IMG/VR virus record: IMGVR_UViG_2531839235_000024
Strand: one strand, 5' to 3'
Source of the DNA: a virus
Taxonomy: Duplodnaviria > Heunggongvirae > Uroviricota > Caudoviricetes
Length of the DNA stretch: 38,024 bases
In this document: positions 263-37,747 of the stretch, piece by piece
Position numbering within the stretch: position 1 is the stretch's first letter
Layout of the letters: the number at the start of each line of letters is the position of its first letter
Position numbers and translations under genes: made by a program
Notes under the pieces: generated by a model
Told to the model about the DNA's origin: nothing
Databases searched by the model: none
The model's input: only the letters and a program-made list of their open reading frames with translations

Positions 263-330
263 TGATACCGATTTGCATTTCATTTGATACCGCTGAAAAA
301 CGCCGATACGCAACTTATTTGATACTAAAT
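258..330. repeat. Putative transposase-binding end repeats (three direct TTTGATAC(C/T) motifs at 261-269, 283-291, 318-326)
   Basis: Seen directly in the sequence, between the mom stop (372) and the host gene fragment; one sub-motif (CTGAAAAACGCC, 292-303) resembles the CGAAAAACGCG of the Mu R1 site as I recall it. Confidence 0.4.
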
Positions 331-371
331 CGGCGCTTTTCTTTTGGGTTTTAGAATGAGTTTTTAAGCGT

Positions 372-1109: not shown

Positions 1110-1263
1110 GACAGGATTTCCTTGTGTATGTGGGGTGCTCTGTGGCGCTCGGAGATGTGATTTGATTGAGGGTTTTACAGCGCGGACATTTTACTTCCAG
1201 ATAACTGAAACTGGCCCGTGCCAGTAGCTTATTGCAGTGTCGGCACCGTATGTTTCGATACAT
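1063..1263 (-). CDS. com: Com translational activator of mom (zinc finger)
   Basis: Internal ATG at 1263 preceded by AGGAGG; product [30 protein letters not shown]...EHPT matches the Mu Com CxxC-N16-CxxC zinc finger pattern as I recall it; 3' end overlaps the mom start. Confidence 0.8.
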
Positions 1264-1304
1264 GGCCGCATAACCTCCTGCTTTGTTGTTGATGCCTTTC
1301 TCAT

Positions 1305-1335
1305 GCAATCGATCGACAAAAACGATCGATTCGAT
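1305..1335. promoter_or_regulatory. GATC (Dam site) cluster upstream of com-mom; candidate methylation-sensitive regulatory region
   Basis: GATC at 1311-1314 and 1324-1327 within CAATCGATCGACAAAAACGATCGATTCGATT, about 50-65 bp upstream of the com ATG; Mu mom is known to be controlled through clustered Dam sites upstream of its promoter. Confidence 0.35.
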
Positions 1336-1663
1336 TTGTTTAATTGATACAACAAATAGATTGAAAAGTCATCAACAATGATTCAGGGCGGTGATTATTT
1401 ACTTAAAGAAAACGAAGACTTAGGTGGTGAAAACGATCATAAAATGATCATTTTATTGACTTTTTATACAGTGAAGGTAGGATCGCGCGTATATGTAGTA
1501 TGTTTCAAATCAACAGGATACTACATAAAGGGAGGTCCAGATAGTTACAGCTATCTGGACCTGGAACAAATTCGCATCAATGCTTTACTTCGAGCTCGTG
1601 TCGTATCCTATGATATTCCCCGGTCTCCTGTAAAGCAGAGATGCATAAAAAGGAGATCTTTAC

Positions 1664-1834
1664 ATGGATAAAGAGCCTGTTTGCCCTGCCTGTAAGACTC
1701 CCTTACAGCTCATCTATCGCCGTTCTCGATCTCAAAATGGCAAGACATACAAACCCCAAAATGCGTCCTGTTTCAGGATGCTGATATGTCCTGCCTGTTC
1801 TCCCCGGAGGGAAAGTACACAAAACGTGCATTAA
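1664..1834 (+). CDS. Small zinc-ribbon protein (56 aa; CPAC...CPAC), not in the supplied ORF track
   Basis: ATG at 1664 preceded by AAAAGGAGA with about 7 nt spacing; translation MDKEPVCPACKTPLQLIYRRSRSQNGKTYKPQNASCFRMLICPACSPRRESTQNVH; followed by a perfect hairpin at 1844-1863. Confidence 0.4.
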   Translation: MDKEPVCPACKTPLQLIYRRSRSQNGKTYKPQNASCFRMLICPACSPRRESTQNVH

Positions 1835-1843
1835 CAAATTCAC

Positions 1844-1863
1844 CCGGCAGGGAAACCTGCCGG
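1844..1863. terminator. Bidirectional stem-loop between convergent genes (CCGGCAGG-GAAA-CCTGCCGG)
   Basis: Perfect 8-bp stem with GAAA tetraloop sitting exactly in the 38-bp gap between the stop of the plus zinc-ribbon ORF (1834) and the stop of the minus 81-aa ORF (1873). Confidence 0.45.
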
Positions 1864-1872
1864 TCGGTATTG

Positions 1873-2118
1873 TTACATCATAGTACCGTCAGTTCCGGGC
1901 TGAACCGGCTCTGGTTGCTCTACGGCTTGAGGCTCATTCTCCGTGCTGTTTTCAGCCGGAGAATGGCCAACCATTCGGGCCAGCACTTCATCAACATATG
2001 CGTCGATTTGTGCCTCAAAATCCTTGCGAACCTGCGCCTTCAGCACGCGGTTCACTTCTTCAGAATAAAGTGCCTGTTTGACAAGCTCTTCAGTAACCGT
2101 GCCTTTAATCTCTGGCAT
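1873..2118 (-). CDS. Hypothetical acidic protein (81 aa)
   Basis: ATG at 2118 preceded by AAAAGGAG with 7 nt spacing; protein-like amphipathic composition; the overlapping plus ORF 1786..2247 looks like antisense junk. Confidence 0.5.
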   Translation of the reverse strand: MPEIKGTVTEELVKQALYSEEVNRVLKAQVRKDFEAQIDAYVDEVLARMVGHSPAENSTENEPQAVEQPEPVQPGTDGTMM

Positions 2119-2153
2119 GAATATTCTCCTTTTGCAGGTATATTGCCCCGTTA

Positions 2154-2336
2154 TCAGAGCGGGGTCGGGTCGTTTGGGGATGACGGTGCCTGTGCTGTTT
2201 TACTGAGTTTTTCAGCTGCCGCATCATCAATTTTACGGCGAATATAATTTCTGATGACCTTATAACCGCCGCTCACCAGATATAACGCACTGACCACTGC
2301 GCAGAAATAAAGCAGCATTGTATGAACGAATGTCAT
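2154..2336 (-). CDS. Hypothetical small membrane protein (60 aa, one N-terminal TM helix)
   Basis: Hydrophobic segment LLYFCAVVSALYLVSGG followed by a charged tail; AAGG-type RBS upstream; immediately upstream of the 81-aa gene on the same strand. Confidence 0.4.
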   Translation of the reverse strand: MTFVHTMLLYFCAVVSALYLVSGGYKVIRNYIRRKIDDAAAEKLSKTAQAPSSPNDPTPL

Positions 2337-2402
2337 ATAACCTTACCTTTGATATTGACTACATAATTCGTTATCGGGTAAAAACATCGAAGCGACTGAT
2401 AA

Positions 2403-2482
2403 CCACTCCTTCGGGAGTATTTTTATTTTCCTTTATGGGTTAGGTAGCTCCCGCCAGCCATATCATGACCGGCGGGATTTTT
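2403..2482 (+). terminator. Two tandem plus-oriented terminator-like hairpins (ACTCC-TTCG-GGAGT + T-run; CCCGCC...GGCGGG + T7)
   Basis: Stem-loops at about 2405-2428 and 2449-2482, each followed by a T-run on the plus strand; they abut or overlap the esterase stop codon (2483-2485). Confidence 0.3.
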
Positions 2483-4531
2483 TTATTCTGTTACCGCTTT
2501 TTTCACTTCCACCACAATGCTGTCAATCAGCACCGGGTAAGTTGCATTTTTTGTGATATCCGTTACGCGGAGTTTGTCCACCGGGAAAGTTCCTACTGGT
2601 GACTGCGTCAGGGTAAACGCGGCACCATCCTGACCATCAATAACCGGAATAACCTGAAGGCTGTTATTTCCTGCAAAACGGAAGGCCAGCGTATGCCATT
2701 CATTATCAAATGCACCAAAGGTTCCCAGTTTCTGGTTATTTGTTGCCACTTTTGCATTGTGGTACATCACATTCAGGTCTTTTGCGTCTGTCTGGATGTA
2801 GAACGATGCCAGCAGATTATTCCCTGCATCCCCTGTCAGGGTGACACCCTGCGGCAGAGAGGAAACCGGCCAGTAAAGCGCCATGACATACTGGTTTGCC
2901 ACCAGGTCGCCCGGTACTTTAAAACGACAACTGATTAAACCACCATTTTTCAGCAGTTCAGCACCAGTACCGGCATCATGATCCAGATACCAGGATGATT
3001 TACCTGTTTCCTTGGTCAGTTTCATTGCCTTACCACCTGTGCCTCCTGCATCACTGATAATTTCAGCTTTACCGCCAGCCGGCTCCCAGCCCTGGGCTTT
3101 CAGATTTCCTTCTGACTCACTGACACGGTAAGACAGCAGTGTTGTGGTTACTGCTTCAGTTTCTGAAGGTGACGGCACTGGTGCTTCAGTTTCAGAAGAT
3201 GGAACATCGGCTTTTACTGTGGTTCGCCCCGCATGAGTCAGAACTGCCGTGGCCAGACGGTCGGAAATAATCCCACGACGTGCCCATGAACTGAAATGGC
3301 TGGCCCGGTCCGTAGATGTCCAGGTGGCGGCACTGTTACGCCACGTTGAGCCGTAATAACCAATGGATTCAATATCCGGGTCTTCTGCCGGATTGTTGGT
3401 GGGTACATTCGCGCCATTTTCATCTGTCATTAATGGGACGAAATGAATGTTTTTATCTGTTTTATTTTTGTAGCCGTCATAGATTGCCTGGTATGCCTGT
3501 TCGTTTTTCTGTTTCCAGAAATACGTGGTATCACCACAAATCCACGGAACGCCAGCAGCACTGCCACCGGTACACTGTTCCGCCTGTTCAGCCAGGTCTG
3601 CGCGGAATTTTTCCACCATCGCCAGAAACAGCGCAGAATGCTCCGTCGGCTTCGCATCAATATCAAACTCGCCCTGCATCCACACCACAGCAAGCAGGCG
3701 GTTTTTCGGGTTCTTCGCCAGTGCCGCTTTTGTCCGGCTGATTAAGTCCTTATACAGCGGCTTATCCACACCCCAGCGGGCTGAGTCCTCTGAAGCACCC
3801 GTGCTGTCACTGTACGTGCCGTCAGCACCCGCCGTGAATGCAGAACCACCACGGCAGCAGGGAACCAGCAGAATCCCCGCATCTGCCGGAATAAACGGCA
3901 GCAGTTTTTTGGCAATGTGAAGCCCCTGACCCACGGTGCCATATTGCCCTTTAGCCACATCCGCTTTCGGGTGATTTTTTCCACTCATATCCTGCACATC
4001 ATGCAGACAGTGGTCGGCCAGAATGATGTCGTTATACTGACAGGCTTTACCTCCCGGCGTGACTGTACTGCGACGGGCTAACTGCATAATACGCGGTTCG
4101 GGGCGGTCATATGTCTCCGGCAGTGGCAGACCTTCACCGTAAGCCATACCGTTTGACTGACCAGCAAGAACCACCACGTAATACCAGGAAGGGGAGCTGG
4201 AAGCCGTTTCATTTCCTGCCGGACGGGTATGTGTTTCTGCATTATCCCAGTCTGACGGTTCAGTAGTACCGGCAACATCAGCACTTAACGGAATGACAGC
4301 ACCAATACCCGCTCCGGTAATTTCCACGTTCGGATCACCGGATACTGGCCTTACCCACAGGCAATCCTGTGTATTAAAACTGATGAGACAGTCAGCAAAT
4401 GTCATTCCTCCTTTCGTTTCAGCAGGAGGAAAGGGAGCCTCAAGAAATGCCGCTGTACCACCGGAAACTTTAACGGTAAAGTTTCCGGGCATTGATGATA
4501 GTTGAACCCATTTGGACGTCATAATATTCAT
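2483..4531 (-). CDS. Carbohydrate esterase, SASA/SGNH-hydrolase type (sialate O-acetylesterase-like, NanS-p-like) with a C-terminal lectin-like domain
   Basis: 682-aa ORF containing the esterase blocks VVLAGQSNGMAYGEG and VVWMQGEFD, a Ser/Thr/Pro/Glu-rich linker (SSETEAPVPSPSETEA) and a roughly 240-aa C-terminal domain; AGGA RBS before ATG at 4531. It has no counterpart at this position in Mu. Confidence 0.6.
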   Translation of the reverse strand: MNIMTSKWVQLSSMPGNFTVKVSGGTAAFLEAPFPPAETKGGMTFADCLISFNTQDCLWVRPVSGDPNVEITGAGIGAVIPLSADVAGTTEPSDWDNAETHTRPAGNETASSSPSWYYVVVLAGQSNGMAYGEGLPLPETYDRPEPRIMQLARRSTVTPGGKACQYNDIILADHCLHDVQDMSGKNHPKADVAKGQYGTVGQGLHIAKKLLPFIPADAGILLVPCCRGGSAFTAGADGTYSDSTGASEDSARWGVDKPLYKDLISRTKAALAKNPKNRLLAVVWMQGEFDIDAKPTEHSALFLAMVEKFRADLAEQAEQCTGGSAAGVPWICGDTTYFWKQKNEQAYQAIYDGYKNKTDKNIHFVPLMTDENGANVPTNNPAEDPDIESIGYYGSTWRNSAATWTSTDRASHFSSWARRGIISDRLATAVLTHAGRTTVKADVPSSETEAPVPSPSETEAVTTTLLSYRVSESEGNLKAQGWEPAGGKAEIISDAGGTGGKAMKLTKETGKSSWYLDHDAGTGAELLKNGGLISCRFKVPGDLVANQYVMALYWPVSSLPQGVTLTGDAGNNLLASFYIQTDAKDLNVMYHNAKVATNNQKLGTFGAFDNEWHTLAFRFAGNNSLQVIPVIDGQDGAAFTLTQSPVGTFPVDKLRVTDITKNATYPVLIDSIVVEVKKAVTE

Positions 4532-4621
4532 CCTGTTCCTGAATAAACAGAATTATCATATCCACAGACCGATAAACGCCATTTTGCGTTAATTCAGTAA
4601 AGGCCCAACAAAGGGAGCGTC

Positions 4622-5182
4622 TTATTTTTCCGAAACGCTCGCAGGATAATAACGATAAAGGGTTGAAAGGCCGATATCAAAAATAAGTGCCACCTGTCTT
4701 CGACTGACACCCCCGGCCAGTAAACGCCCGACCTGCTCGTATTGTTCCTGCGTGAGACGACGGGGTCTGCCGCCGGTTCGTCCCCTTTCACGGGCAGCTG
4801 CAAGACCAGCCCGTGTCCGTTCGACAATTAATTCACGCTCCATTTCTGCCAGCGCACCCATTATGTGAAAAAAGAAGCGCCCCATGGGGGTTGACGTATC
4901 AATGTTGTCAGTAAGACTACGAAAATTTATCCCCTGTTGCTGTAATTCATCTGTCAGCGCAACAAGGTGGCGCATACTGCGCCCCAGCCTGTCCAGTTTC
5001 CAGACCATCAGTGTGTCACCGGGTTTTAGTTTCTTCAGTGCCCGCTTCAGTCCCGGCCGCTGTGTCGTTTTACCACTCATTTTGTCTTCAAAAATCTGCT
5101 CACATCCTGCACATTCCAGCGCATTTCTTTGTAAACCGGTGTTCTGGTCATTTGTTGATACGCGTATATAGCCAATCAGCAT
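4622..5182 (-). CDS. gin: Gin/Hin/Pin-family serine DNA invertase
   Basis: 186 aa; N-terminal MLIGYIRVSTNDQNTGLQRNALECAGCEQIFEDK...TLMVWKLDRLGRS and C-terminal HTH GGRPRRLT match Mu Gin and serine invertases nearly residue for residue. Confidence 0.92.
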   Translation of the reverse strand: MLIGYIRVSTNDQNTGLQRNALECAGCEQIFEDKMSGKTTQRPGLKRALKKLKPGDTLMVWKLDRLGRSMRHLVALTDELQQQGINFRSLTDNIDTSTPMGRFFFHIMGALAEMERELIVERTRAGLAAARERGRTGGRPRRLTQEQYEQVGRLLAGGVSRRQVALIFDIGLSTLYRYYPASVSEK

Positions 5183-5236
5183 GTATTTACCTTCCTTAAA
5201 AAGAGGTGGAAAGGCCTTTTAAAGCAGATATACGGC

Positions 5237-5262
5237 ATCCCTGAAACCTCGGTTTACGGGAT
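5237..5262. repeat. gix/hix-like recombination site (ATCCCTGAAACC-TC-GGTTTACGGGAT), gin-proximal boundary of the invertible segment
   Basis: 26-bp near-perfect palindrome with a 2-bp core, half-sites ending in AAACC as in Hin/Gin crossover sites; lies 55 bp upstream of the gin ATG. Confidence 0.55.
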
Positions 5263-5607
5263 ACTGTAAACAGGGCCGCGAATGCCCTGCCATCGAACGG
5301 AACGGCTGTTGCAGCGAATAAACTCGCCACTCCAAGAAATATTAATGGTGTCCCATTTGACGGAACGCAGGATATAAATATTACATCGGGGATGACGCAG
5401 TCTGTGGCTGACTCACGTTATGTTCAAAGCATTCGAAGAGGTTCAAGGTCAACGATTGGAATGCAATATAATATTTTTGAAGTTCCTGACGGATGCGTAC
5501 TTACAGGGCTTGATGTCGCTGGTGATGGTAATGCAACGGTAACCGCATATTATCGACCTGTTCAGTTTCTGATAGATGGTTCGTGGAAAACAGCTTCCAG
5601 CGCATAA
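5251..5607 (+). CDS. Alternative tail-fibre C-terminal segment (Sv'-like; has no own start, expressed only after inversion)
   Basis: Plus-strand frame encodes GLRDTVNRAANALPSNGTAVAANKLATPRNINGVPFDGTQDINITSGMTQSVADSRYVQ..., about 80% identical to residues 178-236 of the minus-strand tail fibre and in frame with the crossover core. Confidence 0.6.
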   Translation, partial: GLRDTVNRAANALPSNGTAVAANKLATPRNINGVPFDGTQDINITSGMTQSVADSRYVQSIRRGSRSTIGMQYNIFEVPDGCVLTGLDVAGDGNATVTAYYRPVQFLIDGSWKTASSA

Positions 5608-5686
5608 AAGTGCAGTAGTTCAAAAAACAGATTATCTGAATAAATATATGATGATTTTGTCTTTTCAACAAAAACAAGGTGAAATA

Positions 5687-6208
5687 ATGGAGCTTATTAA
5701 CGTAAAACGATATTACCCGGAACACAAACCCTATGGTGAGGATGTTCAGTATTTCCAGAGTGAGGACGGAAGGGATTTTTATGAATCTATCCCGCTTTTC
5801 ACAAAGAAATACAAACTCTGTATTTCGCCTGTAACGGGTATTATCTGCTCTGTTGCTGAAGATGTCTCTGCTTTATATCCGGCAGGTTTTACTGTTGTTG
5901 AAGTGGACGAACTGCCGGAAGGTGTGAATATTGACGGTAACTGGCAGTGTTCTGATGGCCTGATATCAAAGGTGCCGGTAAACTGGAAGACGGTTGCTGA
6001 AAAGCGTCGCTCATCGCTGCTCCAGGAAGCCAACGAAACCGTGGATGACTGGAAAACAGAATTAAAACTGGACATGATTAGCGATGAAAATAAATTACAG
6101 CTGACGCGCTGGATGGCGTATATCCGACAGCTTAAAGAAATGCACTTTAATGATATTGCCAGTGAGGGGCATTACCAGGCGATTCCCTGGCCGGAAAAAC
6201 CGGAATAA
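5687..6208 (+). CDS. Tail fibre assembly chaperone (U'/Tfa-like)
   Basis: ATG at 5687 preceded by AAGGTG; 173 aa, typical size and position for the chaperone following the variable fibre segment inside the invertible region. Confidence 0.65.
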   Translation: MELINVKRYYPEHKPYGEDVQYFQSEDGRDFYESIPLFTKKYKLCISPVTGIICSVAEDVSALYPAGFTVVEVDELPEGVNIDGNWQCSDGLISKVPVNWKTVAEKRRSSLLQEANETVDDWKTELKLDMISDENKLQLTRWMAYIRQLKEMHFNDIASEGHYQAIPWPEKPE

Positions 6209-6213
6209 TTCAG

Positions 6214-6236
6214 AGGGTGCATTCAGCACCCTTTTC
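6214..6236. terminator. Stem-loop terminator between convergent U' and S (AGGGTGC-ATTCA-GCACCCT + TTTT)
   Basis: 7-bp stem followed by a T-run on the plus strand, between the U' stop (6208) and the S stop (6243). Confidence 0.5.
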
Positions 6237-6242
6237 TGTGGT

Positions 6243-7154
6243 TTACACTGAACTTACCGTTCTCCAGGCATTATTAATATAAATCTGAACCGGGCGATAA
6301 TAGACCCCACCGATATTGTCCGCAGACCGGGAGCCGGTTTCCTGCACGTTAATACCGGAAAGCATACAACCGGAAGGTGCGCTGTAATTCCATGATATTT
6401 CATTGCCTCCGGGTGAATGATAGCTCTGTGCTCCAAGCTGAACATTCTGTACATACCGGCCATCTGCGGTTGACTGCGTCATTCCTGACGTGATGTTGAT
6501 ATCCTGCGTTCCGTCAAAAGGAACGCCATTAATATTTCTTGGGGTGGCGAGTCTGTTTGCTGCCACGGCGGTTCCACCCGATGGCAGGGCATCAGCAGCC
6601 TTATTTACCGTTTCCCGTAAACCGACGTTATCGATAAAAGCGCCTTTATCCGGAATGTCTGCGCCGTTCTGCTCCCTGCGCAGGTAACGGTTATCACCTT
6701 CGCTTTTGCTGTAAACATCCAGATTATTACGGGCGGTTCCCGCATTCTCCAGGTCGGCAAGGTTCTGATCCTTCGCCAGAGCATTAACGTCACCGGGACC
6801 AAGACTGTTTTTTGTGGCAAGCGCCCCAAGACCAAGATAACCACGGGCAAGACGCTGGGCTTCCGCACCGGCATCAGCAATTTCTTTCAGGTTGTTTTTC
6901 CGGGAAAAGGCATTCGCAGCGATAATGGCTTTAATGGACAGCGTAAGCTGGTTTAACTGCGCCTTATCCGGCTGAATACTGGCTTCAGCCAGAATATTCA
7001 GCAGTTCGGCCTGGAGAATATTCAGCCAGTCCTGACCAATCCAGCTGATACCTTTTTGTCCGTCACCTTCGGTAAACCAGGTGGTGGTATTACTCTGCGC
7101 CGGTGCCAGCGCAGGCATATTCGCCACGCCGGAATTATTATCAACATGAAACAT
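6243..7154 (-). CDS. Tail fibre protein (S-like; constant N-terminal part fused to the currently expressed variable C-terminus)
   Basis: 303 aa, follows gp48 with a TAATG stop/start overlap; its C-terminal third is paralogous to the plus-strand Sv' segment; a gix-like site lies inside the coding frame at 6612-6637. Confidence 0.75.
   Translation of the reverse strand: MFHVDNNSGVANMPALAPAQSNTTTWFTEGDGQKGISWIGQDWLNILQAELLNILAEASIQPDKAQLNQLTLSIKAIIAANAFSRKNNLKEIADAGAEAQRLARGYLGLGALATKNSLGPGDVNALAKDQNLADLENAGTARNNLDVYSKSEGDNRYLRREQNGADIPDKGAFIDNVGLRETVNKAADALPSGGTAVAANRLATPRNINGVPFDGTQDINITSGMTQSTADGRYVQNVQLGAQSYHSPGGNEISWNYSAPSGCMLSGINVQETGSRSADNIGGVYYRPVQIYINNAWRTVSSV
6612..6637. repeat. Second gix/hix-like site (TTCCCGTAAACC-GA-CGTTATCGATAA) inside the tail-fibre gene, inverted relative to the site at 5237-5262
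   Basis: Inner half-site and core are the reverse complement of the inner half of the first site (11 of 12 plus core); the flanking roughly 170-bp arms (5251-5430 vs 6445-6623) are inverted repeats of about 80% identity. Confidence 0.5.
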
Positions 7155-7714
7155 TAAATAGTCTCCTCTTCATGGCTGTTTGCATACACGTAAATAAACG
7201 TCTGCCATGCAGGCTTATAACGGTTCAGAATACATTCCAGCGCACCGCCTTCATAAATACGCAGCGGCGTGAGAATATCATCCAGCACATTCATATTCCG
7301 GTAGCCGGTTTCACTGTTAATCGTGACAATACTGACCCACTGTGAATCCGGTGATGGCTGAATATCTATTTCATAACCAAACTCTGCCGCAAACCGGATA
7401 TAAAATTCACGGTTAAGAGAGGGTTTCATCCGGTATTTATTCCCGGCATAACGCTGACGCTCCTGAATTGTTGCGCCGGTCATATCACATTCCGGTAACC
7501 CCAGATAACGCTCCCAGTCTTCCAGCAGCAGACGGGATGAATCAGGAAAACGTTCTGCCAGCATCTGGTTACCGGTCCAGGAAACACGCTCCGTGGAATG
7601 ACTGAGGCCCAGGCACAAAGCCGCAAGAACGGATGACGGCCGCTTATCCCATGCCAGCCCGTCAGGCAGCAACTGCAACAGGGCACGCTGATGCGGGGTC
7701 AGGGTTACAGCCAT
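7154..7714 (-). CDS. Tail/baseplate protein, Mu gp48-like
   Basis: 186 aa, between the baseplate J-like gene and the tail fibre as in Mu; translationally coupled to S. Confidence 0.6.
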   Translation of the reverse strand: MAVTLTPHQRALLQLLPDGLAWDKRPSSVLAALCLGLSHSTERVSWTGNQMLAERFPDSSRLLLEDWERYLGLPECDMTGATIQERQRYAGNKYRMKPSLNREFYIRFAAEFGYEIDIQPSPDSQWVSIVTINSETGYRNMNVLDDILTPLRIYEGGALECILNRYKPAWQTFIYVYANSHEEETI

Positions 7715-21168: not shown

Positions 21169-21289
21169 ATTGCCTCCGTATAAAATATGAATATAAAATA
21201 AGCAGGCGGTCAGTGTACGCTTAACTGGTAAAGTCGGTGCCTGCCTCCGGGTGGATCATGTATGCGGGTTCGACCCCCGCCACTGACCG

Positions 21290-27920: not shown

Positions 27921-28421
27921 TCAGACTTTCGGCAAGTCGTAGCGACATAACCATTCATCCGCCGAACGGCGGGCCTCAAGGCCGGGGAGTTTCACCCCCT
28001 TTGAATAAATCCAGCGGATATACTGCTTACAGGACGCGGGCATCTGCCCGGCATTGATCAGGCGCAGAAGCGTGGAGTTGCGAAAGTTCGTTTCACCGGC
28101 CCAGAAGATCCACGAAGCCAGCGCCACCGTCTGACCACGGGTAAGCGGCACCTGAACACGCCGATCAATGGCCGCAAAGGCCCATTTCATGTCCTTTTCC
28201 AGTAGTTCCAGGCATTCTTCATCTGTCAGGGTCATACCCGGTTTCACATCCGGGCCGGTATGGCCGTAACAGATGGTGGGTGTACCGGTGGGATCGATAT
28301 ACGTGGAGTTTTCTTTCCCTTCCCAGTAACCGGTGTAATGCGTGGCAATCGTGAACGTCCCGGCACCGGCCAGAACAAGGGCAATCAGCTTTTTACGCAG
28401 TGGTGCGGGGAGTTTTGGCAT
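27921..28421 (-). CDS. lys: SAR endolysin (phage lysozyme with N-terminal signal-anchor-release domain)
   Basis: N-terminal KKLIALVLAGAGTFTIATHY hydrophobic segment followed by the lysozyme catalytic region YWEGKENSTYIDPTGTPTICYGHTG; Mu lys is a SAR endolysin. Confidence 0.7.
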   Translation of the reverse strand: MPKLPAPLRKKLIALVLAGAGTFTIATHYTGYWEGKENSTYIDPTGTPTICYGHTGPDVKPGMTLTDEECLELLEKDMKWAFAAIDRRVQVPLTRGQTVALASWIFWAGETNFRNSTLLRLINAGQMPASCKQYIRWIYSKGVKLPGLEARRSADEWLCRYDLPKV

Positions 28422-28422
28422 T

Positions 28423-28460
28423 GTTACGCTGTCTCATGATGTTCTCTGAGTCAGCGTAAC
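28423..28460. promoter_or_regulatory. Interrupted inverted repeat GTTACGCTG-N20-CAGCGTAAC immediately upstream of the lys start codon
   Basis: 9-bp perfect arms seen directly; lies in the 71-bp gap between the Mor/C-family gene and lys, where Mu carries its C-dependent lys promoter. Confidence 0.35.
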
Positions 28461-28492
28461 GGTGAAGGAGAGGCGGCAGGCTTTGCGGAATA

Positions 28493-28918
28493 TCAGAAAA
28501 GTGGCGGTTGCGTTCTTGCCAGATGCAGACGGCGCTGTTCGCGTATGACGGTATAAATCTGGGTTTCTGACATCCGGTAATGGCGGCGAAGGGATTCAAT
28601 TTTCTCGCCCCGGTCCCAGCGCGAAAATATCTCATTGTTTCGCAGCTCGGCAAAGAGAGATTCCCCGACCGGCAGGTAATAACCCCGTCCGCCCATATAG
28701 GCTGCCTGAGCCGCAGCCACCTTGCGTGCCAGTTTACCGGCCAGTACCGGCTCAATCCCCTGACGCTGAAGTTCTGCGCCGGTGACTTCAACCAGTTCTG
28801 ACAGGGTCCGCGGCCAGTTCTTTTTGAGAACATCATCAGGGATGTCATCAAGGCGGTCGATAAGGGCGTGCAGTTGCTCACTGTCACCACCAAACATGCT
28901 CATCTGAGTTTCTGCCAT
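28493..28918 (-). CDS. Mor/C-family transcriptional activator (probable late-gene activator C analogue)
   Basis: 141 aa with the C-terminal HTH pattern LRRHYRMSETQIYTVIREQRR resembling Mu Mor/C; immediately upstream of the lysis genes. Confidence 0.65.
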   Translation of the reverse strand: MAETQMSMFGGDSEQLHALIDRLDDIPDDVLKKNWPRTLSELVEVTGAELQRQGIEPVLAGKLARKVAAAQAAYMGGRGYYLPVGESLFAELRNNEIFSRWDRGEKIESLRRHYRMSETQIYTVIREQRRLHLARTQPPLF

Positions 28919-28987
28919 ATCAGCCTCCGGTTCTCGCGTTCCCGGTAAGTTTAAAATAAAAATCCCGCGTTGTGGCGGGATTTGGGG

Positions 28988-29497
28988 TTAACGGGGAAGT
29001 GATTTTTCATACTGCCTGCAAACGGCGTCATACCCCATCAGCGTGCGTTCGGGCATTCCCATCGCGGCCAGCATTTTGCGGCGGTGCCATCGCTTGAGAC
29101 GCTCCAGCACATCTGAGGCCAGGGCGGGGTGTTGCTCCAGCCACTGCCAGTTTGCCACACCTTCGCCGCCGTTCTGCGCGGCCGTCTGCGATTTCACCCA
29201 GCGGTTAAGAGCGGTTTCCGCACCATCAGAGATAAAGCCCTGCCGGTGCATCACTTTCCAGATGGCGCGAATTTTGGCGGTCACCGTACCCGGTTTTAAG
29301 GCCCGGTTAACCGGTTTCTGACGCACTTTAAAACCGCGTTTTTTGAAAACATCCAGCACGCGGGATAACTCACCGGGTGACATATCCCGGCAGCTGGTTT
29401 TGCCGGTGGCTGCCAGTAGTACGAATGTGTAGGTCTCATCATCTAGGGCAAGCTCGCGCTTTGCCACATGAATAGCGGATATCAGTTTCCCTCTCAT
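28988..29497 (-). CDS. gemA: GemA-like protein (Mu gp16)
   Basis: N-terminus ...ISAIHVAKRELALDDETYTFVLLAATGKTSCRDMSPGELSRVLDVFKKRGFKVR matches Mu GemA as I recall it. Confidence 0.7.
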   Translation of the reverse strand: MRGKLISAIHVAKRELALDDETYTFVLLAATGKTSCRDMSPGELSRVLDVFKKRGFKVRQKPVNRALKPGTVTAKIRAIWKVMHRQGFISDGAETALNRWVKSQTAAQNGGEGVANWQWLEQHPALASDVLERLKRWHRRKMLAAMGMPERTLMGYDAVCRQYEKSLPR

Positions 29498-29790
29498 GCT
29501 GTATCAACACTCCTGCTGATATGATAGATATTACTTTCCCGATCGAGCTGAACCCGATACTCCGGAGGAATCACAAAAATATTAAAACCATCATCAGTTT
29601 TTATTCTTGAGTAGTATTCCCCCTTATGATATCTGGCAAGTGCATTAATCAGAGAAGTCGCCGCCAGCCCAATCAGGTATTTTTTATGAAAAATACTGAT
29701 AACTTTCCGGCACAGCCATCGTGTAATGACGAATGCACCGAAAAACGATGTGATATATAAACACCAGAACAACTGCGAACTACTGTCCAT
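29494..29790 (-). CDS. Hypothetical membrane protein (98 aa, N-terminal TM)
   Basis: Part of an AT-rich run of four small genes with overlapping stop/start codons; hydrophobic segment LFWCLYITSFFGAFVITRWL. Confidence 0.4.
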   Translation of the reverse strand: MDSSSQLFWCLYITSFFGAFVITRWLCRKVISIFHKKYLIGLAATSLINALARYHKGEYYSRIKTDDGFNIFVIPPEYRVQLDRESNIYHISRSVDTA

Positions 29791-29977
29791 TATCTTTCTC
29801 CTTATTCAGTCTTCTGCGACATTCGGCACAGTCATCAGGGCTTTCAAATGTATCCGGCTCGCGATTATGAGCCAGATATAACCACCGCCTACATATACTG
29901 ATATTATCGCCAGTTTTAAAAAAATGATGCTTCTTAGCCATCAGAGGGCGCGCCCATCCAGCGGGTAGACTATTCAT
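29780..29977 (-). CDS. Hypothetical small protein (65 aa, Cys-containing)
   Basis: Translationally coupled within the AT-rich cassette. Confidence 0.35.
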   Translation of the reverse strand: MNSLPAGWARPLMAKKHHFFKTGDNISICRRWLYLAHNREPDTFESPDDCAECRRRLNKEKDNGQ

Positions 29978-30344
29978 TTGCTTTATCCTCCATACTGGAC
30001 AAAATCATCTGTATTAATGTCGGGCGTGGAGATATACGCATTTCATTAAGCGTCTGAAGGGCAGCAACAGCTGCCTGTTTATCGGTGCCTTTGGCAATTT
30101 CCGCAAGAGAATGCACAATCCATAACGGACTTAACGCCACGACTGAATCCAGAATCATGTCATCCATAATAATTTCTGACACATCCCGCTTATCACATTC
30201 CTTATCCATAAAAGAAACGATTTTTTCCACATCTTCCGGTTTCATGCCTCCGGCGATAAGAAATTTGCGATACTCATAAGACGATCTTAATTCAATACTC
30301 ATATTCATCTCCTGTAACTCTGACAAGGACGTGATTTTTCTCAT
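29970..30344 (-). CDS. Hypothetical acidic protein (124 aa)
   Basis: Translationally coupled within the AT-rich cassette. Confidence 0.4.
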   Translation of the reverse strand: MRKITSLSELQEMNMSIELRSSYEYRKFLIAGGMKPEDVEKIVSFMDKECDKRDVSEIIMDDMILDSVVALSPLWIVHSLAEIAKGTDKQAAVAALQTLNEMRISPRPTLIQMILSSMEDKANE

Positions 30345-30526
30345 TTATGTTTTCCAGTAATACGGATATATATGTCGATAAGAAGATTCATAATAAACAG
30401 GAAGAGCGACATCCTGATAAAGAACCAAATATCTGGCATCATGGACAGGTTTCCTGTAATCGCAAATATAAAACCAACCCCCAACACCGGAACGAAAATT
30501 GCGAAAAATACAAGTCTCTTTATCAT
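30341..30526 (-). CDS. Hypothetical small membrane protein (61 aa, two TM helices)
   Basis: Two hydrophobic helices (LVFFAIFVPVLGVGFIFAI and FFIRMSLFLFIMNLLIDIYI); ATGA overlap with the upstream gene. Confidence 0.4.
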   Translation of the reverse strand: MIKRLVFFAIFVPVLGVGFIFAITGNLSMMPDIWFFIRMSLFLFIMNLLIDIYIRITGKHK

Positions 30527-31074
30527 GGCGTTAACTCCCGTAATACAGCGTCCTCGGCAGTCCGGCGATGGTGATAAATAAAATTCACCGTACTCTCGGA
30601 TAATTCAAATTTCTCGCCTATTTCCCGGAAGGTAAGACGTCGTGGTGATTCAGCATCCCGTAATTCACGAATAAGATGAACATCATCGTCAGGTATACGG
30701 GTGAAGGGCAGCAATTCTCCGTATTTTTTCATGCTTACGCCAATATATCGCGCCCGATTGTGGACAGAATCCCGGTCTCGCCCCAGATATTCTCCTATTT
30801 GCTTACCGGTCATCGTTCTGGCATTTTTTCGGATAAATTTATCTTCATCATGTTTAAATCTTGGACGTTTGCATTTGAGCAACTCCGGGTAAGTACCGCG
30901 TAATAAAACAATCCGGTTATGTACACCCCAGAAACTTCTTTTTACCCTGACAGCAATATCCTTAACCGGGGTGGATGGATAAAGCGCAATCAGCAGCGCA
31001 TCTTCTTCAGGTGTCCACGCACGGACATGAGCAGGTGCCTGACCTTTTCGCCCCATGGGTTGTAAAATCATCAT
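30523..31074 (-). CDS. Putative HTH regulator with a Mor/C-like C-terminal helix-turn-helix
   Basis: 183 aa; C-terminal LTFREIGEKFELSESTVNFIYHHRR resembles the Mor/C DNA-binding helix; could be the Mor-equivalent middle-operon activator. Confidence 0.45.
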   Translation of the reverse strand: MMILQPMGRKGQAPAHVRAWTPEEDALLIALYPSTPVKDIAVRVKRSFWGVHNRIVLLRGTYPELLKCKRPRFKHDEDKFIRKNARTMTGKQIGEYLGRDRDSVHNRARYIGVSMKKYGELLPFTRIPDDDVHLIRELRDAESPRRLTFREIGEKFELSESTVNFIYHHRRTAEDAVLRELTP

Positions 31075-31077
31075 ACA

Positions 31078-31593
31078 TCACCCCCTGACTCGCTTTTCAG
31101 CAGCATAAAACTCATCAGACAGAATTTCGGTCATTTTCTGATTTGCGGGTTTTACGCCGCACTCAAGGTAAATCACATCGTCAACGCAGAACCACTTCAC
31201 AGGGCCAAACATGATTGCCGAGAAATCAATACCCAGCCAGAACAACAGTGCATCGGTTCTGGCATACGTGACGGGCGAATATTCACGCCACAGACTGTTA
31301 AGTTCGTCAGAGGCAACGCGCAGGGCTTTGGGAATACGTGATGTGCGCGGTGTGCAGCTCCAGCCATTCGACGCAGTCGGTTTTCGCCATAAGTCGCGAT
31401 GAAAAGGATATTTGTCATCCATAAAGCGCAGCCCTTTAAAACAAAAGCCACTGATACCGGATACAAATACCGACCGGCACGCAACATTCAGCACGGCCTC
31501 AAGGCGTTTTGCCTCATCCTTAACTTTCTGGCAGTCCTGCTGATATTTTTGCCACGCGGCCAGCGCGGAAGGGTTTGATGTTTTAAAGAACAT
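31078..31593 (-). CDS. Hypothetical early-region protein (171 aa)
   Basis: ORF in the operonic early region; no recognisable motif. Confidence 0.45.
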   Translation of the reverse strand: MFFKTSNPSALAAWQKYQQDCQKVKDEAKRLEAVLNVACRSVFVSGISGFCFKGLRFMDDKYPFHRDLWRKPTASNGWSCTPRTSRIPKALRVASDELNSLWREYSPVTYARTDALLFWLGIDFSAIMFGPVKWFCVDDVIYLECGVKPANQKMTEILSDEFYAAEKRVRG

Positions 31594-32126
31594 TACGCCA
31601 CCTCCGCAGATATCCCAGCAGGCGCGGCCGTCCGGTCAACAATCAGGTAACGCAGAACGCGCGAGGTGATATTCCAGCCGCTTAAACCGCAGATAATGAC
31701 ACCCAGGCGTATGTCGATATACGCCATCACAAACTGGGGCACGCCTTCTTTCATGGCCTGCTCATCAACTTCAGCCACCACATAAACGGTTTCACAGGTC
31801 AGAACGCCCTGAGCAAATTCCCACGCCATTGACGGAATATCATGCCCCTCAATCCACGGCAGGGATTTTCTGAAGCTGCACCACTGAACATCATCAGCCG
31901 CACCTTCCTGGCTGCATTTGCGACGAACCGGCTGCACCGGGCGGGGACGCGGAATATCATAAAAACCGTTACATTCCGTCAGCACCCCGGCATCGACCGC
32001 ATCACGCAGAAAATAAACCATCGAGGATGGCGGCATATTCATTTTTTCAGCCAGAATGCCGCAGGTCAGACGCCCGTAAATACTCAGCCAGTTTTTAACC
32101 CCTTCAAGCACTTTTGCATCAATCAT
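31593..32126 (-). CDS. Hypothetical early-region protein (177 aa)
   Basis: ORF in the operonic early region; no recognisable motif. Confidence 0.45.
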   Translation of the reverse strand: MIDAKVLEGVKNWLSIYGRLTCGILAEKMNMPPSSMVYFLRDAVDAGVLTECNGFYDIPRPRPVQPVRRKCSQEGAADDVQWCSFRKSLPWIEGHDIPSMAWEFAQGVLTCETVYVVAEVDEQAMKEGVPQFVMAYIDIRLGVIICGLSGWNITSRVLRYLIVDRTAAPAGISAEVA

Positions 32127-32769: not shown

Positions 32770-33300
32770 TTATTTATTCAGTCCGGCGTCCTGTTCAAAA
32801 GGCTCGACATAAAAACTTTCAGCGCCTTTATTCACCTTAATACCGGCAATCCCTTTCACCGCATCCGGCTCCGCCAGGACCGCTTCCTTGTTCACTTCCT
32901 CTTTCGTGCGGATAAAACGCTCAAGGCCCATACGGCGCAGCATTTCAATCACACCTTCCACATCACGACTGACGCTGCATGATGGATTCCCCAGTCGCCA
33001 TGACACCGTTCCGGTGGTCAGATTGGCAGTTTTGGTTTTGCCGCCGTTCGTCAGCTCATCACGGTTGGTTTTGCACCAGTCCTGAATCCCCTTAAAAAGC
33101 ACTTTGATTTCTTTTTTAAGGTTTTCAATCTGCGGCGTATAACGGGCGGTGATTTCTGCCACTTCATCATTCATCGCTGTTTCCAGGCGCAGCGCCTCTC
33201 GCTGAATATCGCCCAGGGTGCGGATATCGCGGCTGACCTCTTCACGGGTCTGCGGTGCCGCCTCTGCTGCGGCCTTTAATTTTGTAACGCGTTTTGCCAT
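32770..33300 (-). CDS. gam: Host-nuclease inhibitor Gam (Ku-like DNA-end binding protein)
   Basis: 176 aa; strings such as LRLETAMNDEVAEITARY, NRDELTNGGKTKTANLTTGTVSWR and LERFIRTKEEVNKEAVLAEP closely match Mu Gam as I recall it. Confidence 0.85.
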   Translation of the reverse strand: MAKRVTKLKAAAEAAPQTREEVSRDIRTLGDIQREALRLETAMNDEVAEITARYTPQIENLKKEIKVLFKGIQDWCKTNRDELTNGGKTKTANLTTGTVSWRLGNPSCSVSRDVEGVIEMLRRMGLERFIRTKEEVNKEAVLAEPDAVKGIAGIKVNKGAESFYVEPFEQDAGLNK

Positions 33301-34428: not shown

Positions 34429-34656
34429 TTAGCTGACTTGTTTCGCACCAACAGAACGGCATATTCCGCTGTAAACGTCTGTCGCACCTTCTCGATCAAG
34501 TCCGGCAGATATCACCATTCGTGTGCGGTCATTAAATTCAAAAAGTAAATCGCCACATTCTTTATTTTCGGCCAGTGAAATCACCTTCACGTTATCGAAA
34601 TTAACCAGGTAAAAGCGTCCGTAAATATCAGGAATATTAAATACCGCCATAATCAC
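34429..34656 (-). CDS. Small protein at the Kil position (immediately downstream of B)
   Basis: 75 aa, similar in size and position to Mu Kil (74 aa); no sequence-level match claimed. Confidence 0.35.
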   Translation of the reverse strand: MIMAVFNIPDIYGRFYLVNFDNVKVISLAENKECGDLLFEFNDRTRMVISAGLDREGATDVYSGICRSVGAKQVS

Positions 34657-35585
34657 ACCTGTGAGAGTAATTCAGGGTTGGTATAAACCTCTTTAAAGGC
34701 CGCATTAATATGTTTTTCTGTCAGCGCCGCGCCTTCACCGCTGGCGGTGAGCCACGCCTGGTTAAGCGTATGTGTCAGAACGCGTAACGCTCCCGGCTTT
34801 TCAGCGATAGCCTGCATGACGGCCAGCTCGGCCTCACCACTGATCCCCCACGCCCTGGCAATGGCCAGCACATCCGCCTTTTTGGCCTTGCGAAGTTGTT
34901 TTGTACGGGCAAGACGGCTGAACAGGCGCGATAAATCATCAAAGGTGCGGCGTCCACCTTTAAACAATCCGCGCGGGTTACCAATAAGCACCATCCCGAT
35001 CCCCGTGGCGTCCTGAATTGCCCGGAGTTGCTCCAGACCGTCAATACCAAGATGATCCGCCTCATCCACAATAACCAGTCCACGCGTTCCCGTCAGGCGA
35101 CGGCGGATGGCGCGGGATAATGCCCCTTTGTTCGCGCGGGTGTAATCAATCCCCAGCGCATCGGCCAGCTCCAGCAGACACTCCGTGACGCTGGAGTGCG
35201 CGGGTGACAGGGTGATCATCCAGGTGTTTGGTTGCTCCTGGCAGTAATTACGGGCAGTGGCCGTTTTACCCACACCCGGTACGCCCACAATAACGTTAAT
35301 ACAGCCCATCAGACGAACCGCCTGAAACAGTGCGCGCAGCTCCTGGACTGTCTGCGTTTCCACAAACTGCGGCGGTTCCGGCAGTGCGCTTTGTTTATTC
35401 CAGTTCTCATACCAGGAACGCAGGGAAGCAGCCACAGCAGCGTTATCGCCTTTATATTTTCCCTTACGGAAAGCCGATAATGTGCCGTCGGAAATTCCCG
35501 CCTCTCTGGCGATGGCATACTGCGTCAGTACGCCGCCATCAATAAGTTCATCAATGGTCTTGATTACATCGTTAATATCAGTCAT
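34653..35585 (-). CDS. B: Transposition ATPase / target DNA activator B (MuB)
   Basis: 310 aa; N-terminal HTH, Walker A GVPGVGKT and Walker B LVIVDEADHLG, plus long colinear matches to Mu B (for example PEPPQFVETQTV, KKADV, QKPGALR). Confidence 0.9.
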   Translation of the reverse strand: MTDINDVIKTIDELIDGGVLTQYAIAREAGISDGTLSAFRKGKYKGDNAAVAASLRSWYENWNKQSALPEPPQFVETQTVQELRALFQAVRLMGCINVIVGVPGVGKTATARNYCQEQPNTWMITLSPAHSSVTECLLELADALGIDYTRANKGALSRAIRRRLTGTRGLVIVDEADHLGIDGLEQLRAIQDATGIGMVLIGNPRGLFKGGRRTFDDLSRLFSRLARTKQLRKAKKADVLAIARAWGISGEAELAVMQAIAEKPGALRVLTHTLNQAWLTASGEGAALTEKHINAAFKEVYTNPELLSQV

Positions 35586-35656: not shown

Positions 35657-37747
35657 TCAGGCCAGCGGGTCATTTTCTTTTAATTTCGCTTCCAGCAACT
35701 GCAATCCCCGCTGGAAATTACGCTCGTATTCTTCATCAGGTTCATCGTCAGCGACCGGTTGCTGAACGGTCACCGTATTACCCACAGGGCGGTATATGTT
35801 TTCCAGCCAGGGCTCCTGCGGCTTGTGCTCCAGCACGTTGACAACCTCATCCTCGGCATCACGGATTTTTTCCTCTGCGCGTTTACGCATGCCTTTAAGG
35901 CGTTGCTGCTGTTTGTAGTATTCCGCGCTAACCGGGAAGGCTTCGCGTTTATTACCGTCCCATACCGCCTCGCAAATCACGCTGCCATCCAGGCGACGTA
36001 CGGTAATTCGTTCGGCATCATGAATGTCATAGCTGATAAGCACCTTACGACCATGCTCGTCACGCAGCTCGGGCGCGTAGTAAATATTATTCAGCCAGCG
36101 TATTTCACAGCGTCTTACAGGGCGTTCCACCATCGGCCGGAACATATCCCGCAGCTCAACATCGGACAGCCATTCAATTTCCGTGTCCTCTTCCGCCAGG
36201 CGTTTTTTTCTGAACTCCGCCGGGCTGTAATGCTTGCCGTTCGGCTTCACCGGTAATTCATCGTGCGGCCGGTTGTTGTACCACTCAACACCGTCACGAA
36301 TGGCATCAATCAGTTCAGACCAGGACGGTAAATCACGCATCGCTGACTGCTGCCGGGCGTTCAGCCGTTTGCCCTGTTGCAGGGCAGTAAATGCCGAGCG
36401 TAAATCGCGGTTGGTTTTGCGTAACGTCTCGCGATCTGCACCTTTCCCGAAATAGGTGCGGTATTTACGGGCTATGCGCATCGGTAATGTGCGGTTAAGC
36501 CGTTCGATAATGCCTCGTCCCTGCGGATTACCGGCAATCCCGGTCGGGTGGTTAATCCCCAGTCGCGGCAGTATCCCCACAACCTCCTTATCCAGGATGT
36601 CGGCGGTTTCCCCGGAGCCGTTATCCGAGTAATACAGAAACGGTTTGCCGTGATGGCGAATGCCGTGCTGTATGGCACCGGCTACGGCGAAAACATTTTC
36701 AGCCAGGTCAAGGCTCCAGCCCACCACAAAGCGCGTGCCACCGTCGATAACAAAGGTCACTTCCGGTGCAAATGGCCGACCGTGAACCGGGTGTGCGCAT
36801 TTCAGCTTCATGCCGTGACCGTCACCAATCCAGACATAATTCACCGGCATTCTGGACCAGTCGCGGCGCGTGAATCCCTCAAGCTGGCGGTATTCACTGC
36901 CGGTCACCCGGCCTTTTTGTTTCACCACTTCCGGCAGTTTCTTCATTGCGCGGCGAATGGTGTCATAAGACGGCATGATATCGAGCATATAAGGCTCATC
37001 AGCGTGCCGGTGCTGCCATTCAGCGACAAAATCCTCGTAAGCCTCGGTCATTGGTCGGCCGTTTGACTGGCGATACTGCGCCAGAAATTCGGGCAGCCAG
37101 TTAATATCTTCGGCTTTTATTTCCTGGCGCTTACCCGGTGCCAGTAAAAGCAGGCGTTCAGCGGCGTTCTGCGCCTTGTTAAAGGCCGCAATCCAGCGTT
37201 TCAGCGTTATTTCACTCAACGCACGGCTGTTTCCCTTTTTGGCGTTCGCCGTCTCAACCATTGCCACAATGCGCTCGTCCAGTTGCGAACGTGCCAGGTT
37301 GTCAACGATAAACCGGATAGCTTTCGCACAGCTGAAACCGGGTTGTTGCGCGACTTTCATCACTTCGCTGACGATCGCGATTCGTGCATCAGCCACCTGG
37401 CGCTGGTTTTCAGTCAGGGCATTAAGGCGTTCAACCATCAGTTGTGGTGATCCGCGATATGCCTCCACCGCATCAACCACGGCAGGCGAGCGTCTGGCCT
37501 TTGTCACCACCGGAGCCGGTGATTCATCAGCTTTTTGCGTCATCAGTTGAAGGGCATAACGTTCACGCAATACTTGTTGCGCGCCAGAAGGCAAACAATC
37601 GATATTAAATTCGATTGCTTTTGTCCCCTTACGTTTGCGTAACATGGCTGCATTTCCCGCAGCTGCTTTTGTGAGTCGATGGCGAATGTTATGTTCCATC
37701 ATTGGTAAATCAGGAAGACCAACACATTCTTTTGCTGTTACCCACAT
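35657..37747 (-). CDS. A: DDE transposase A (MuA)
   Basis: 696 aa; N-terminus MWVTAKECVGLPDLP parallels Mu A MELWVSPKECANLPGLP; size and position (ner-A-B). Confidence 0.9.
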   Translation of the reverse strand: MWVTAKECVGLPDLPMMEHNIRHRLTKAAAGNAAMLRKRKGTKAIEFNIDCLPSGAQQVLRERYALQLMTQKADESPAPVVTKARRSPAVVDAVEAYRGSPQLMVERLNALTENQRQVADARIAIVSEVMKVAQQPGFSCAKAIRFIVDNLARSQLDERIVAMVETANAKKGNSRALSEITLKRWIAAFNKAQNAAERLLLLAPGKRQEIKAEDINWLPEFLAQYRQSNGRPMTEAYEDFVAEWQHRHADEPYMLDIMPSYDTIRRAMKKLPEVVKQKGRVTGSEYRQLEGFTRRDWSRMPVNYVWIGDGHGMKLKCAHPVHGRPFAPEVTFVIDGGTRFVVGWSLDLAENVFAVAGAIQHGIRHHGKPFLYYSDNGSGETADILDKEVVGILPRLGINHPTGIAGNPQGRGIIERLNRTLPMRIARKYRTYFGKGADRETLRKTNRDLRSAFTALQQGKRLNARQQSAMRDLPSWSELIDAIRDGVEWYNNRPHDELPVKPNGKHYSPAEFRKKRLAEEDTEIEWLSDVELRDMFRPMVERPVRRCEIRWLNNIYYAPELRDEHGRKVLISYDIHDAERITVRRLDGSVICEAVWDGNKREAFPVSAEYYKQQQRLKGMRKRAEEKIRDAEDEVVNVLEHKPQEPWLENIYRPVGNTVTVQQPVADDEPDEEYERNFQRGLQLLEAKLKENDPLA

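Follow-up and report, generated by a model that had tools for sequence, protein, structure and literature searches.

What kind of region lies between the helix-turn-helix (HTH) regulator gene and gemA of a Mu-like Escherichia coli prophage, where the DNA turns AT-rich and encodes four small proteins? We addressed this question for positions 29494-30526 of IMG/VR virus record IMGVR_UViG_2531839235_000024, a stretch of 38,024 nt (hereafter the window) that is wholly one Mu-like prophage of E. coli, of the Sp18 type. The four genes, named here by the lengths of their products, encode proteins of 61, 110, 65 and 98 amino acids (aa). An earlier interpretation from the letters alone (the sequence-only reading) had taken them for a single horizontally acquired cassette serving superinfection exclusion, anti-defence or host takeover. 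We are confident in the anatomy and evolution of the region: a slot for accessory genes, rich in AT and prone to recombination, at the distal end of the early operon. As an explanation of the whole, we lean towards an accessory slot carrying early-lytic host modulators, and we assign the slot only tentatively, from its context, to the functional class of host take-over or counter-defence in the early lytic phase.

The composition of the region is atypical for the prophage. At 40.5%, positions 29494-30526 have the lowest guanine-plus-cytosine (GC) content of all 1033-bp sliding windows taken at 10-bp steps across the whole 38 kb; the sequence-only reading had estimated roughly 30-42% by eye. 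Its figure of 55-60% for the surroundings applies to the downstream (late) side only; the upstream flank is at 46-53% GC, and the early region upstream averages 51%. GC contents of the 61-, 110-, 65- and 98-aa genes are 35.5, 40.5, 44.9 and 40.1%, respectively, and their GC contents at third codon positions (GC3) span 0.40-0.44 versus 0.62 for gemA and 0.56 for the Mor/C-family gene. Because GC3 is low too, we rejected a mere effect of hydrophobic amino acids as the source of the dip. The HTH gene is also GC-poor (46%; GC3 0.40), so the low-GC tract really comprises five genes, 29494-31074.

We also compared this dip with that of other GemA loci, gathered from other species with a four-sequence GemA alignment. 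From gemA to the 1 kb upstream, GC content changes by -14.7 points in the window; across the 67 other-species loci that were long enough for GC measurement, the same difference has a mean of -0.3, a standard deviation of 4.0 and a minimum of -12.9. Given that mean, a general trait of Mu-like phages upstream of gemA was rejected. In every close relative examined, the slot genes are AT-rich, with GC3 of 0.35-0.47 versus 0.58-0.65 for gemA. Two other low-GC patches occur at the right end of the prophage (1201-1600 and 5601-6000; 39-40% in 400-bp windows), the first near Mom and the second inside the invertible tail-fibre segment.

The four open reading frames (ORFs) are genuine genes under purifying selection. 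Ratios of nonsynonymous to synonymous substitution rates (dN/dS), computed against three to four diverged copies that included prophage Sp18 of E. coli O157:H7 Sakai, strain 139 and strain OkiPb01712, lie at 0.10-0.20 in all four genes (0.15-0.20 for the 61-aa, 0.13-0.15 for the 110-aa and 0.10-0.11 for the 65-aa gene). All four lengths and frames are kept relative to Sakai, with no indels.

Four translationally coupled genes of 61, 124, 65 and 98 aa had been proposed. The four ORFs stand, as do the other overlaps, and the second gene most likely starts at M15 (position 30302), giving a protein of 110 rather than 124 aa. An AGGAG lies 6 nt upstream of the M15 ATG; the Prokaryotic Genome Annotation Pipeline (PGAP) calls the gene as 110 aa in identical prophages; the PHROG profile for the protein begins at residue 15; and in E. 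coli variants without the first gene, homology begins at 30315. With this start, 39 nt separate the first and second genes, and we rejected the 124-aa version that would be overlap-coupled to its neighbour. The remaining junctions overlap, through ATGA between the HTH and 61-aa genes and between the 98-aa gene and gemA, by 8 nt between the 110- and 65-aa genes and by 11 nt between the 65- and 98-aa genes. Good ribosome-binding sites precede three of the four starts (GGAG, GGAGG and AAGGAG, with GGAG upstream of the 61-aa gene) and likewise the corrected M15.

The slot is built of three independently exchanged modules, and this overturned the idea of one four-gene cassette. We classified architectures in 27 related loci, which comprise prophage contigs from IMG/VR, loci in annotated E. 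coli genomes and a diverged relative; all 27 have the HTH gene and a gene of the 98-aa type. The space between these two was taken either by the 61-aa gene or by unrelated genes, PHROG 6925 alone or together with PHROG 6158; in strain OkiPb01712, the 61-aa gene coexists with the PHROG 6925/6158 genes and an additional 75-aa gene. The 110- and 65-aa genes were jointly present or jointly absent in E. coli, each of two alleles of the 98-aa gene was found with any upstream combination, and natural variants lacking the 61-, 110- and 65-aa genes exist. The modules are thus the 61-aa gene, the 110- plus 65-aa pair, and the 98-aa gene, which is constant and has two old alleles. In the Sp18-type clade, the 61-aa and the 110-/65-aa genes vary, and the 98-aa and HTH genes are constant.

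The two alleles of the 98-aa gene, A in the window and B in Sakai, encode proteins with 50% identity. Their synonymous divergence (dS) is saturated at about 2-2.7, with dN at 0.38 and dN/dS at 0.14-0.19. DNA identity of the gene to Sakai is 74% and then 49% in its 3' half, without gaps. Overall, the early region is 96.8% identical to that of Sp18 across 9.7 kb; it stands at 99-100% identity except from 31290 to 29341, where identity is 88-97%. The 3' part of the gp12-like gene (31078-31290, minus strand) is 88-91% identical to Sakai, with dN/dS raised to 0.46; the recombined block therefore begins inside the gp12-like gene, upstream of the HTH gene. In mouse strain M18, allele A lies at a dS of only 0.016 from that of the window, versus 0.28-0.62 for the flanks overall (0.62 for the HTH flank and 0.28 for the gemA flank), so allele A has moved between diverged phages. 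Horizontal acquisition or exchange, as proposed from the letters, is therefore borne out by the atypical GC3, the mosaic architectures and the discordant dS in M18.

A diverged Sp18-type relative (loci L090-92), with GemA 64% and the HTH protein 52% identical, has the order HTH, PHROG 6925 gene, 55-aa gene (in L090), dATP/dGTP pyrophosphohydrolase, 106-aa, 101-aa and 88-aa genes, and gemA. The 106-aa protein of L090 is 40% identical to the 110-aa protein, and the 101-aa protein (P0040) is 41% identical to the 98-aa protein and occupies the same position, with the 88-aa gene separating it from gemA. The pyrophosphohydrolase (PF04447; L090 4735-5682; L092 2624-3700), an enzyme of the nucleotide pool, accompanies these small genes; another lies near a 65-aa homologue in a Citrobacter element with Cro- and Q-like genes (L007 6889-7488).

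Opposite-strand ORFs were observed beside gemA in several loci: a 113-aa ORF between gemA and mor in mouse strain M1 (L004 4540-4881, minus strand), a 137-aa DUF2513-like ORF (PHROG 585) directly upstream of gemA in Edwardsiella (L008 4523-4936, minus strand), and SfMu_16 adjoining gemA in SfMu (L088 3023-3289, minus strand). The borders of gemA thus seem to be insertion hotspots for moron-like genes.

Beyond the clade, a synteny comparison showed that the four genes are not core Mu content, as an accessory module would predict. Neither BLASTP nor hhalign found a homologue of the four proteins in Mu, and we rejected its gp13, gp14 and gp15 as diverged positional orthologues, since BLASTP returned nothing and hhalign gave probabilities below 1%. 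In the 80 other-species GemA loci, phmmer (E<=1e-3) found the 61-, 110- and 98-aa proteins in none; an 87-aa Edwardsiella ORF, unflagged by that scan, shows, by eye and in an alignment, a weak partial resemblance to the 110-aa protein. The 61-aa protein was found only in E. coli/Shigella, and the 98-aa family is confined to Sp18-type prophages: when 1.84 billion representative proteins were searched exhaustively with HMMER, the only matches were clusters of the family itself, the 101-aa homologue, two artefacts from repeat proteins and some fragments. Homologues of the 110-aa protein are SfMu_14 (37%) and proteins of Yersinia Mu-like phages (36-38%), recovered by tblastn against a phage collection at E values of 2e-8 to 5e-5 and, for SfMu_14, by pairwise BLASTP at 1e-15. 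ORF14 of SfMu was reported to be absent from Mu and D108 (PMC4406740).

Only the 65-aa family is widespread. In a Salmonella Mu-like prophage, a homologue sits immediately upstream of gemA, and others occur in Citrobacter elements that have P22_Cro- and antiterminator-Q-like genes. A Klebsiella phage carries one beside a DNA methyltransferase, and about 270 records of Pseudomonas phages, including the Pbunavirus type (45%), have the family as well. Homologues in distant phages, at 37-45% identity, retain length and motifs.

Gene order agrees with the proposed placement of the slot between the HTH regulator and gemA in the distal, semi-essential-type early region. We searched for signals of separate expression with simple consensus scans. 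No sigma-70-like site was found on the minus strand of 28400-31700 by this method, which could miss a weak or activator-dependent promoter, and a terminator-like hairpin directly after gemA is the probable end of the early transcript. Gene overlaps, promoter scan and hairpin together fit read-through from the early promoter, in which the slot genes and gemA would be the last early genes. Lacking a promoter-like site of their own, and with the hairpin placed after gemA, the slot genes would probably be made with the transposition genes, only after induction or infection.

Two of the proteins were predicted to carry transmembrane helices, in agreement with the sequence-only reading. The 61-aa protein is basic (isoelectric point (pI) 10.4) and very hydrophobic, and hydropathy gives two clear spans at about residues 4-24 and 33-55 between basic ends; the charge distribution suggests an N-in/C-in hairpin. 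The 98-aa protein has a weaker N-terminal span (Kyte-Doolittle maximum 1.43), in which residues 3-23 carry no charge and precede RWLCRK. We predict an N-terminal membrane anchor, with a C-terminal domain that is probably cytoplasmic by the positive-inside rule; an AlphaFold2 (AF2) model with a predicted local distance difference test (pLDDT) score of 67.5 has one long helix, spanning residues 3-54, and a small sheet of four strands.

The 110-aa protein is acidic (pI 4.8), predicted to be all-helical and cytoplasmic, and matches PHROG 1988 (E 5e-44); the family shares the motif LIAGGMP...SPxWI..L..IA.G.DKxAAVAAL, and the C-terminal 35 residues vary among alleles. The 65-aa protein is basic and matches PHROG 2358 (E 2.6e-33). 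Across 17 sequences of its family, H17 and H18 are invariant and C29, C50 and C53 each reach at least 90% conservation; together with the signature REPDTFESPDDCxxCRRKL, this pattern suggests that it is probably a small zinc-binding protein; its best match in the PDB is a weak one to the RNF4 RING on the CxxC region (E 0.012).

Upstream of the slot, the HTH protein matches PHROG 323 ('transcriptional regulator, D5-like'; E 6e-59), with weak HTH Pfam matches under the cut-off and nothing usable in sequence or profile searches of the PDB. It is 52-100% identical across the 27 loci. Within E. coli its alleles are 71-73% identical. Mu gp9/E8, a protein of 95 aa encoded upstream of gam in Mu, shares 31% identity (E 1.7e-8) with the C-terminal half of the HTH protein.

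How might such a slot serve the phage? Predicted early-lytic expression, modules that are mostly dispensable within the clade, and orphan proteins of small size and of membrane or acidic nature together suggest host take-over or counter-defence. The proteins would act as small dispensable host modulators in the early lytic phase, the 61- and 98-aa proteins at the inner membrane and the 110- and 65-aa proteins in the cytoplasm. It is doubtful that the whole HTH-to-gemA slot is more narrowly a counter-defence island. If it were, the 110-aa, 65-aa and PHROG 6925/6158 proteins would be new inhibitor families against E. coli immunity, itself an unlikely outcome, and the two 98-aa alleles might be matched to alternative host or phage targets, which we consider no likelier.

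Several observations weigh against a role in host modulation. None of the four families has a match in Pfam, NCBIfam, PADLOC or PDB sequences, and the same resources yielded no similarity to known exclusion (Sie, Imm, Cor), anti-defence or take-over families. All PHROG matches of slot proteins are labelled 'unknown function', and the database names of the four proteins are all 'hypothetical protein'. Sequence and profile searches of the four families against all PDB chains gave nothing below E 0.01 (the best for the 110-aa family was 'Art22', E 0.043), and Pfam scans of all family members at E values up to 5 gave inconsistent noise only. The AF2 models are poor (pLDDT 52 for the 110-aa and 67.5 for the 98-aa protein), and a fold search with the latter returned only non-significant SH3-like or Cren7-like matches (best E 0.8 in the PDB and 0.3 in BFVD). 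The dN/dS values give no sign of positive selection, the promoter scan has the blind spot described above, and the constancy of the 98-aa and HTH genes across the clade fits a phage-intrinsic role at least equally well.

Such a role is the most serious competing explanation, especially for the constant 98-aa and HTH genes, even if we consider it unlikely to account for the slot. The 98-aa protein would then be an accessory factor, perhaps alongside the 110- and 65-aa proteins, working with the HTH protein and GemA, for example in early-to-late timing, transposition target choice or nucleoid state, each a doubtful suggestion. The 98-aa gene is retained with the HTH gene in all 27 loci and abuts gemA through an ATGA overlap in the E. 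coli loci, a 65-aa homologue lies directly upstream of gemA in the Salmonella prophage, and all four genes are under purifying selection. Distribution speaks against it: the 61-, 110- and 98-aa genes are missing from Mu, from D108-type phages and from the 80 other GemA-bearing prophages, members of the clade can do without the 61-aa gene or the 110- plus 65-aa pair, and the 65-aa family is also found outside the Mu-like phages, in a Klebsiella phage and in lytic Pseudomonas phages.

Expression from the lysogen is less probable still. As a moron, the slot would use the 61- and 98-aa membrane proteins to exclude superinfecting phages or alter the host envelope, and two predicted membrane proteins, a base composition typical of morons and two allelic forms of the 98-aa protein all suit this improbable account. 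The genes are instead set within the early operon, on the strand of their neighbours and with overlapping junctions, and the consensus scans found neither a sigma-70-like site on the coding strand nor a terminator bracket around them. The true opposite-strand insertions beside gemA in relatives look different, and no similarity to Sie, Imm or Cor families was found. Classical superinfection exclusion by the lysogen, one of the functions first proposed, is thus disfavoured because the genes lie inside the early operon and the crude scan of 28400-31700 found no sigma-70-like site on their strand. Finally, although the lowest-GC tract of the window, frequent recombination breakpoints and orphan proteins could be expected of mostly non-functional filler, in which AT-rich DNA matters for H-NS binding or as a recombination hotspot and the ORFs are incidental, this is very improbable given dN/dS of 0.10-0.20 in all four frames, including alleles with saturated dS, conserved lengths and frames without indels versus Sakai, and distant homologues (37-45%) that retain length and motifs.

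The accessory slot is part of a prophage whose genes are read on the minus strand over the whole 38 kb. The early order is A, B, ..., gam, gp11-like, gp12-like, HTH, 61, 110, 65, 98 and gemA; the gp11 and gp12 homologues are 67% and 54% identical to their Mu counterparts and GemA is 43% identical to Mu GemA. Downstream of the Mor/C activator lie lysis, head and tail genes, a Gin-type invertase and Mom. Coordinates are collected in the table.

Features of the prophage, with positions in the 38,024-nt window
Feature	Position	Strand	Remark
Transposase A	35657-37747	-	Mu-like early gene
B	34653-35585	-	Mu-like early gene
Gam	32770-33300	-	followed by gp11 and gp12 homologues
HTH/SANT-Myb-like DNA-binding protein, 183 aa	30523-31074	-	upstream frame of the slot
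61-aa ORF	30341-30526	-	module 1
110-aa gene	29970-30302	-	module 2a; longest ORF 29970-30344 (124 aa)
65-aa ORF	29780-29977	-	module 2b
98-aa ORF	29494-29790	-	adjoins gemA
gemA, 169 aa	28988-29497	-	PF06252, E 9.5e-30; downstream frame of the slot
Terminator-like hairpin	28960-28983	-	9-bp stem and T-rich tail; consensus match in pattern scan; directly after gemA
Mor/C-family late activator	28493-28918	-	PF08765, E 2.8e-32; first gene after the early operon
Gin-type invertase	4622-5182	-	right end of prophage
682-aa protein, sialate O-acetylesterase (SASA) domain and DUF6645	2483-4531	-	between Gin-type invertase and Mom
Mom	372-1109	-	right end of prophage

A single Mor/C-family activator is present, nearer to Mu C (39% identity) than to Mor (27%), and a lysozyme gene follows it directly; Sp18-type phages seem to do without Mu's separate middle operon. 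At the right end, the 682-aa protein looks like a cargo gene product, reminiscent of NanS-type esterases in Shiga-toxin phages. With Mom, the invertase and the esterase there, we rejected host DNA as an identity for positions 1-7600. In an identical prophage, PGAP (RefSeq) annotates a 'tRNA-OTHER' at about 21209-21288 (plus strand), between the virion morphogenesis and minor head genes; ARAGORN and Rfam gave no match for it in the window.

The slot region is 100% identical in prophages of several genomes of Shiga-toxin-producing E. coli. Of 5426 complete E. coli genomes, 231-233 have its flanks and 221 have part or all of the cassette. About 4% of complete E. coli genomes carry Sp18-type prophages, which are common in lineages that produce Shiga toxin. 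With conserved flanks, interchangeable modules and two alleles, the slot offers a compact candidate set for host take-over and counter-defence screens, and the 65-aa family would, if the function is confirmed, tie it to several hundred lytic Pseudomonas phages. The genes themselves had already been annotated as hypothetical in a prophage that is well known, and regions of this type are familiar; what is new is where the slot begins and ends, how it divides into modules, that the 98-aa gene has two old alleles, and that its families connect with SfMu ORF14 and with a gene family of Pseudomonas phages.

The closest known system is Sakai Sp18, described as a probably intact Mu-like prophage that mitomycin does not induce (PMC2669165). 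Its genes ECs_4956, ECs_5772 and ECs_4957-4959 have the same order, lengths and flanks, the last four corresponding to the slot genes and all annotated as hypothetical; our literature search found ECs4956-4959 mentioned in no paper. The HTH, 61-, 110- and 65-aa proteins of Sakai are 93-95% identical to those of the window, and the difference lies in the 98-aa gene, for which Sakai carries the other allele. SfMu is more distant: its 110-aa homologue occupies the same slot upstream of gemA and also has low GC3 (0.38), but sits between Mu-type gp13 and gp14 without a 61-, 65- or 98-aa partner.

Phages also carry variable accessory regions or 'anti-defence islands', among them anti-CRISPR loci that come with an HTH gene. 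No member of the slot matches a known anti-defence protein, and, unlike in anti-CRISPR loci, the HTH gene is upstream rather than downstream and encodes a large (183 aa), two-domain protein. Like such islands, the slot combines AT-richness, an adjacent HTH gene and probable early expression with orphan genes of small size and with gene sets that alternate, in close relatives, between the same conserved flanks.

In Mu, the semi-essential region extends between B/gam and gemA-mor, and its part between gp12 and gemA likewise consists of small, packed, same-strand genes. Its gp13, a Cys-rich 60-aa protein, and its gp14 and gp15 are unrelated to the four proteins described here, and the Sp18-type slot differs further by an extra HTH gene and membrane proteins. 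The Mu slot (gp13-gp14-gp15) is also somewhat lower in GC than gemA, at 45-48% versus 55%, and the dip here is about three times larger. In aggregate, the HTH-to-gemA region is an ordinary kind of phage accessory region, the counterpart of Mu's semi-essential region with different content.

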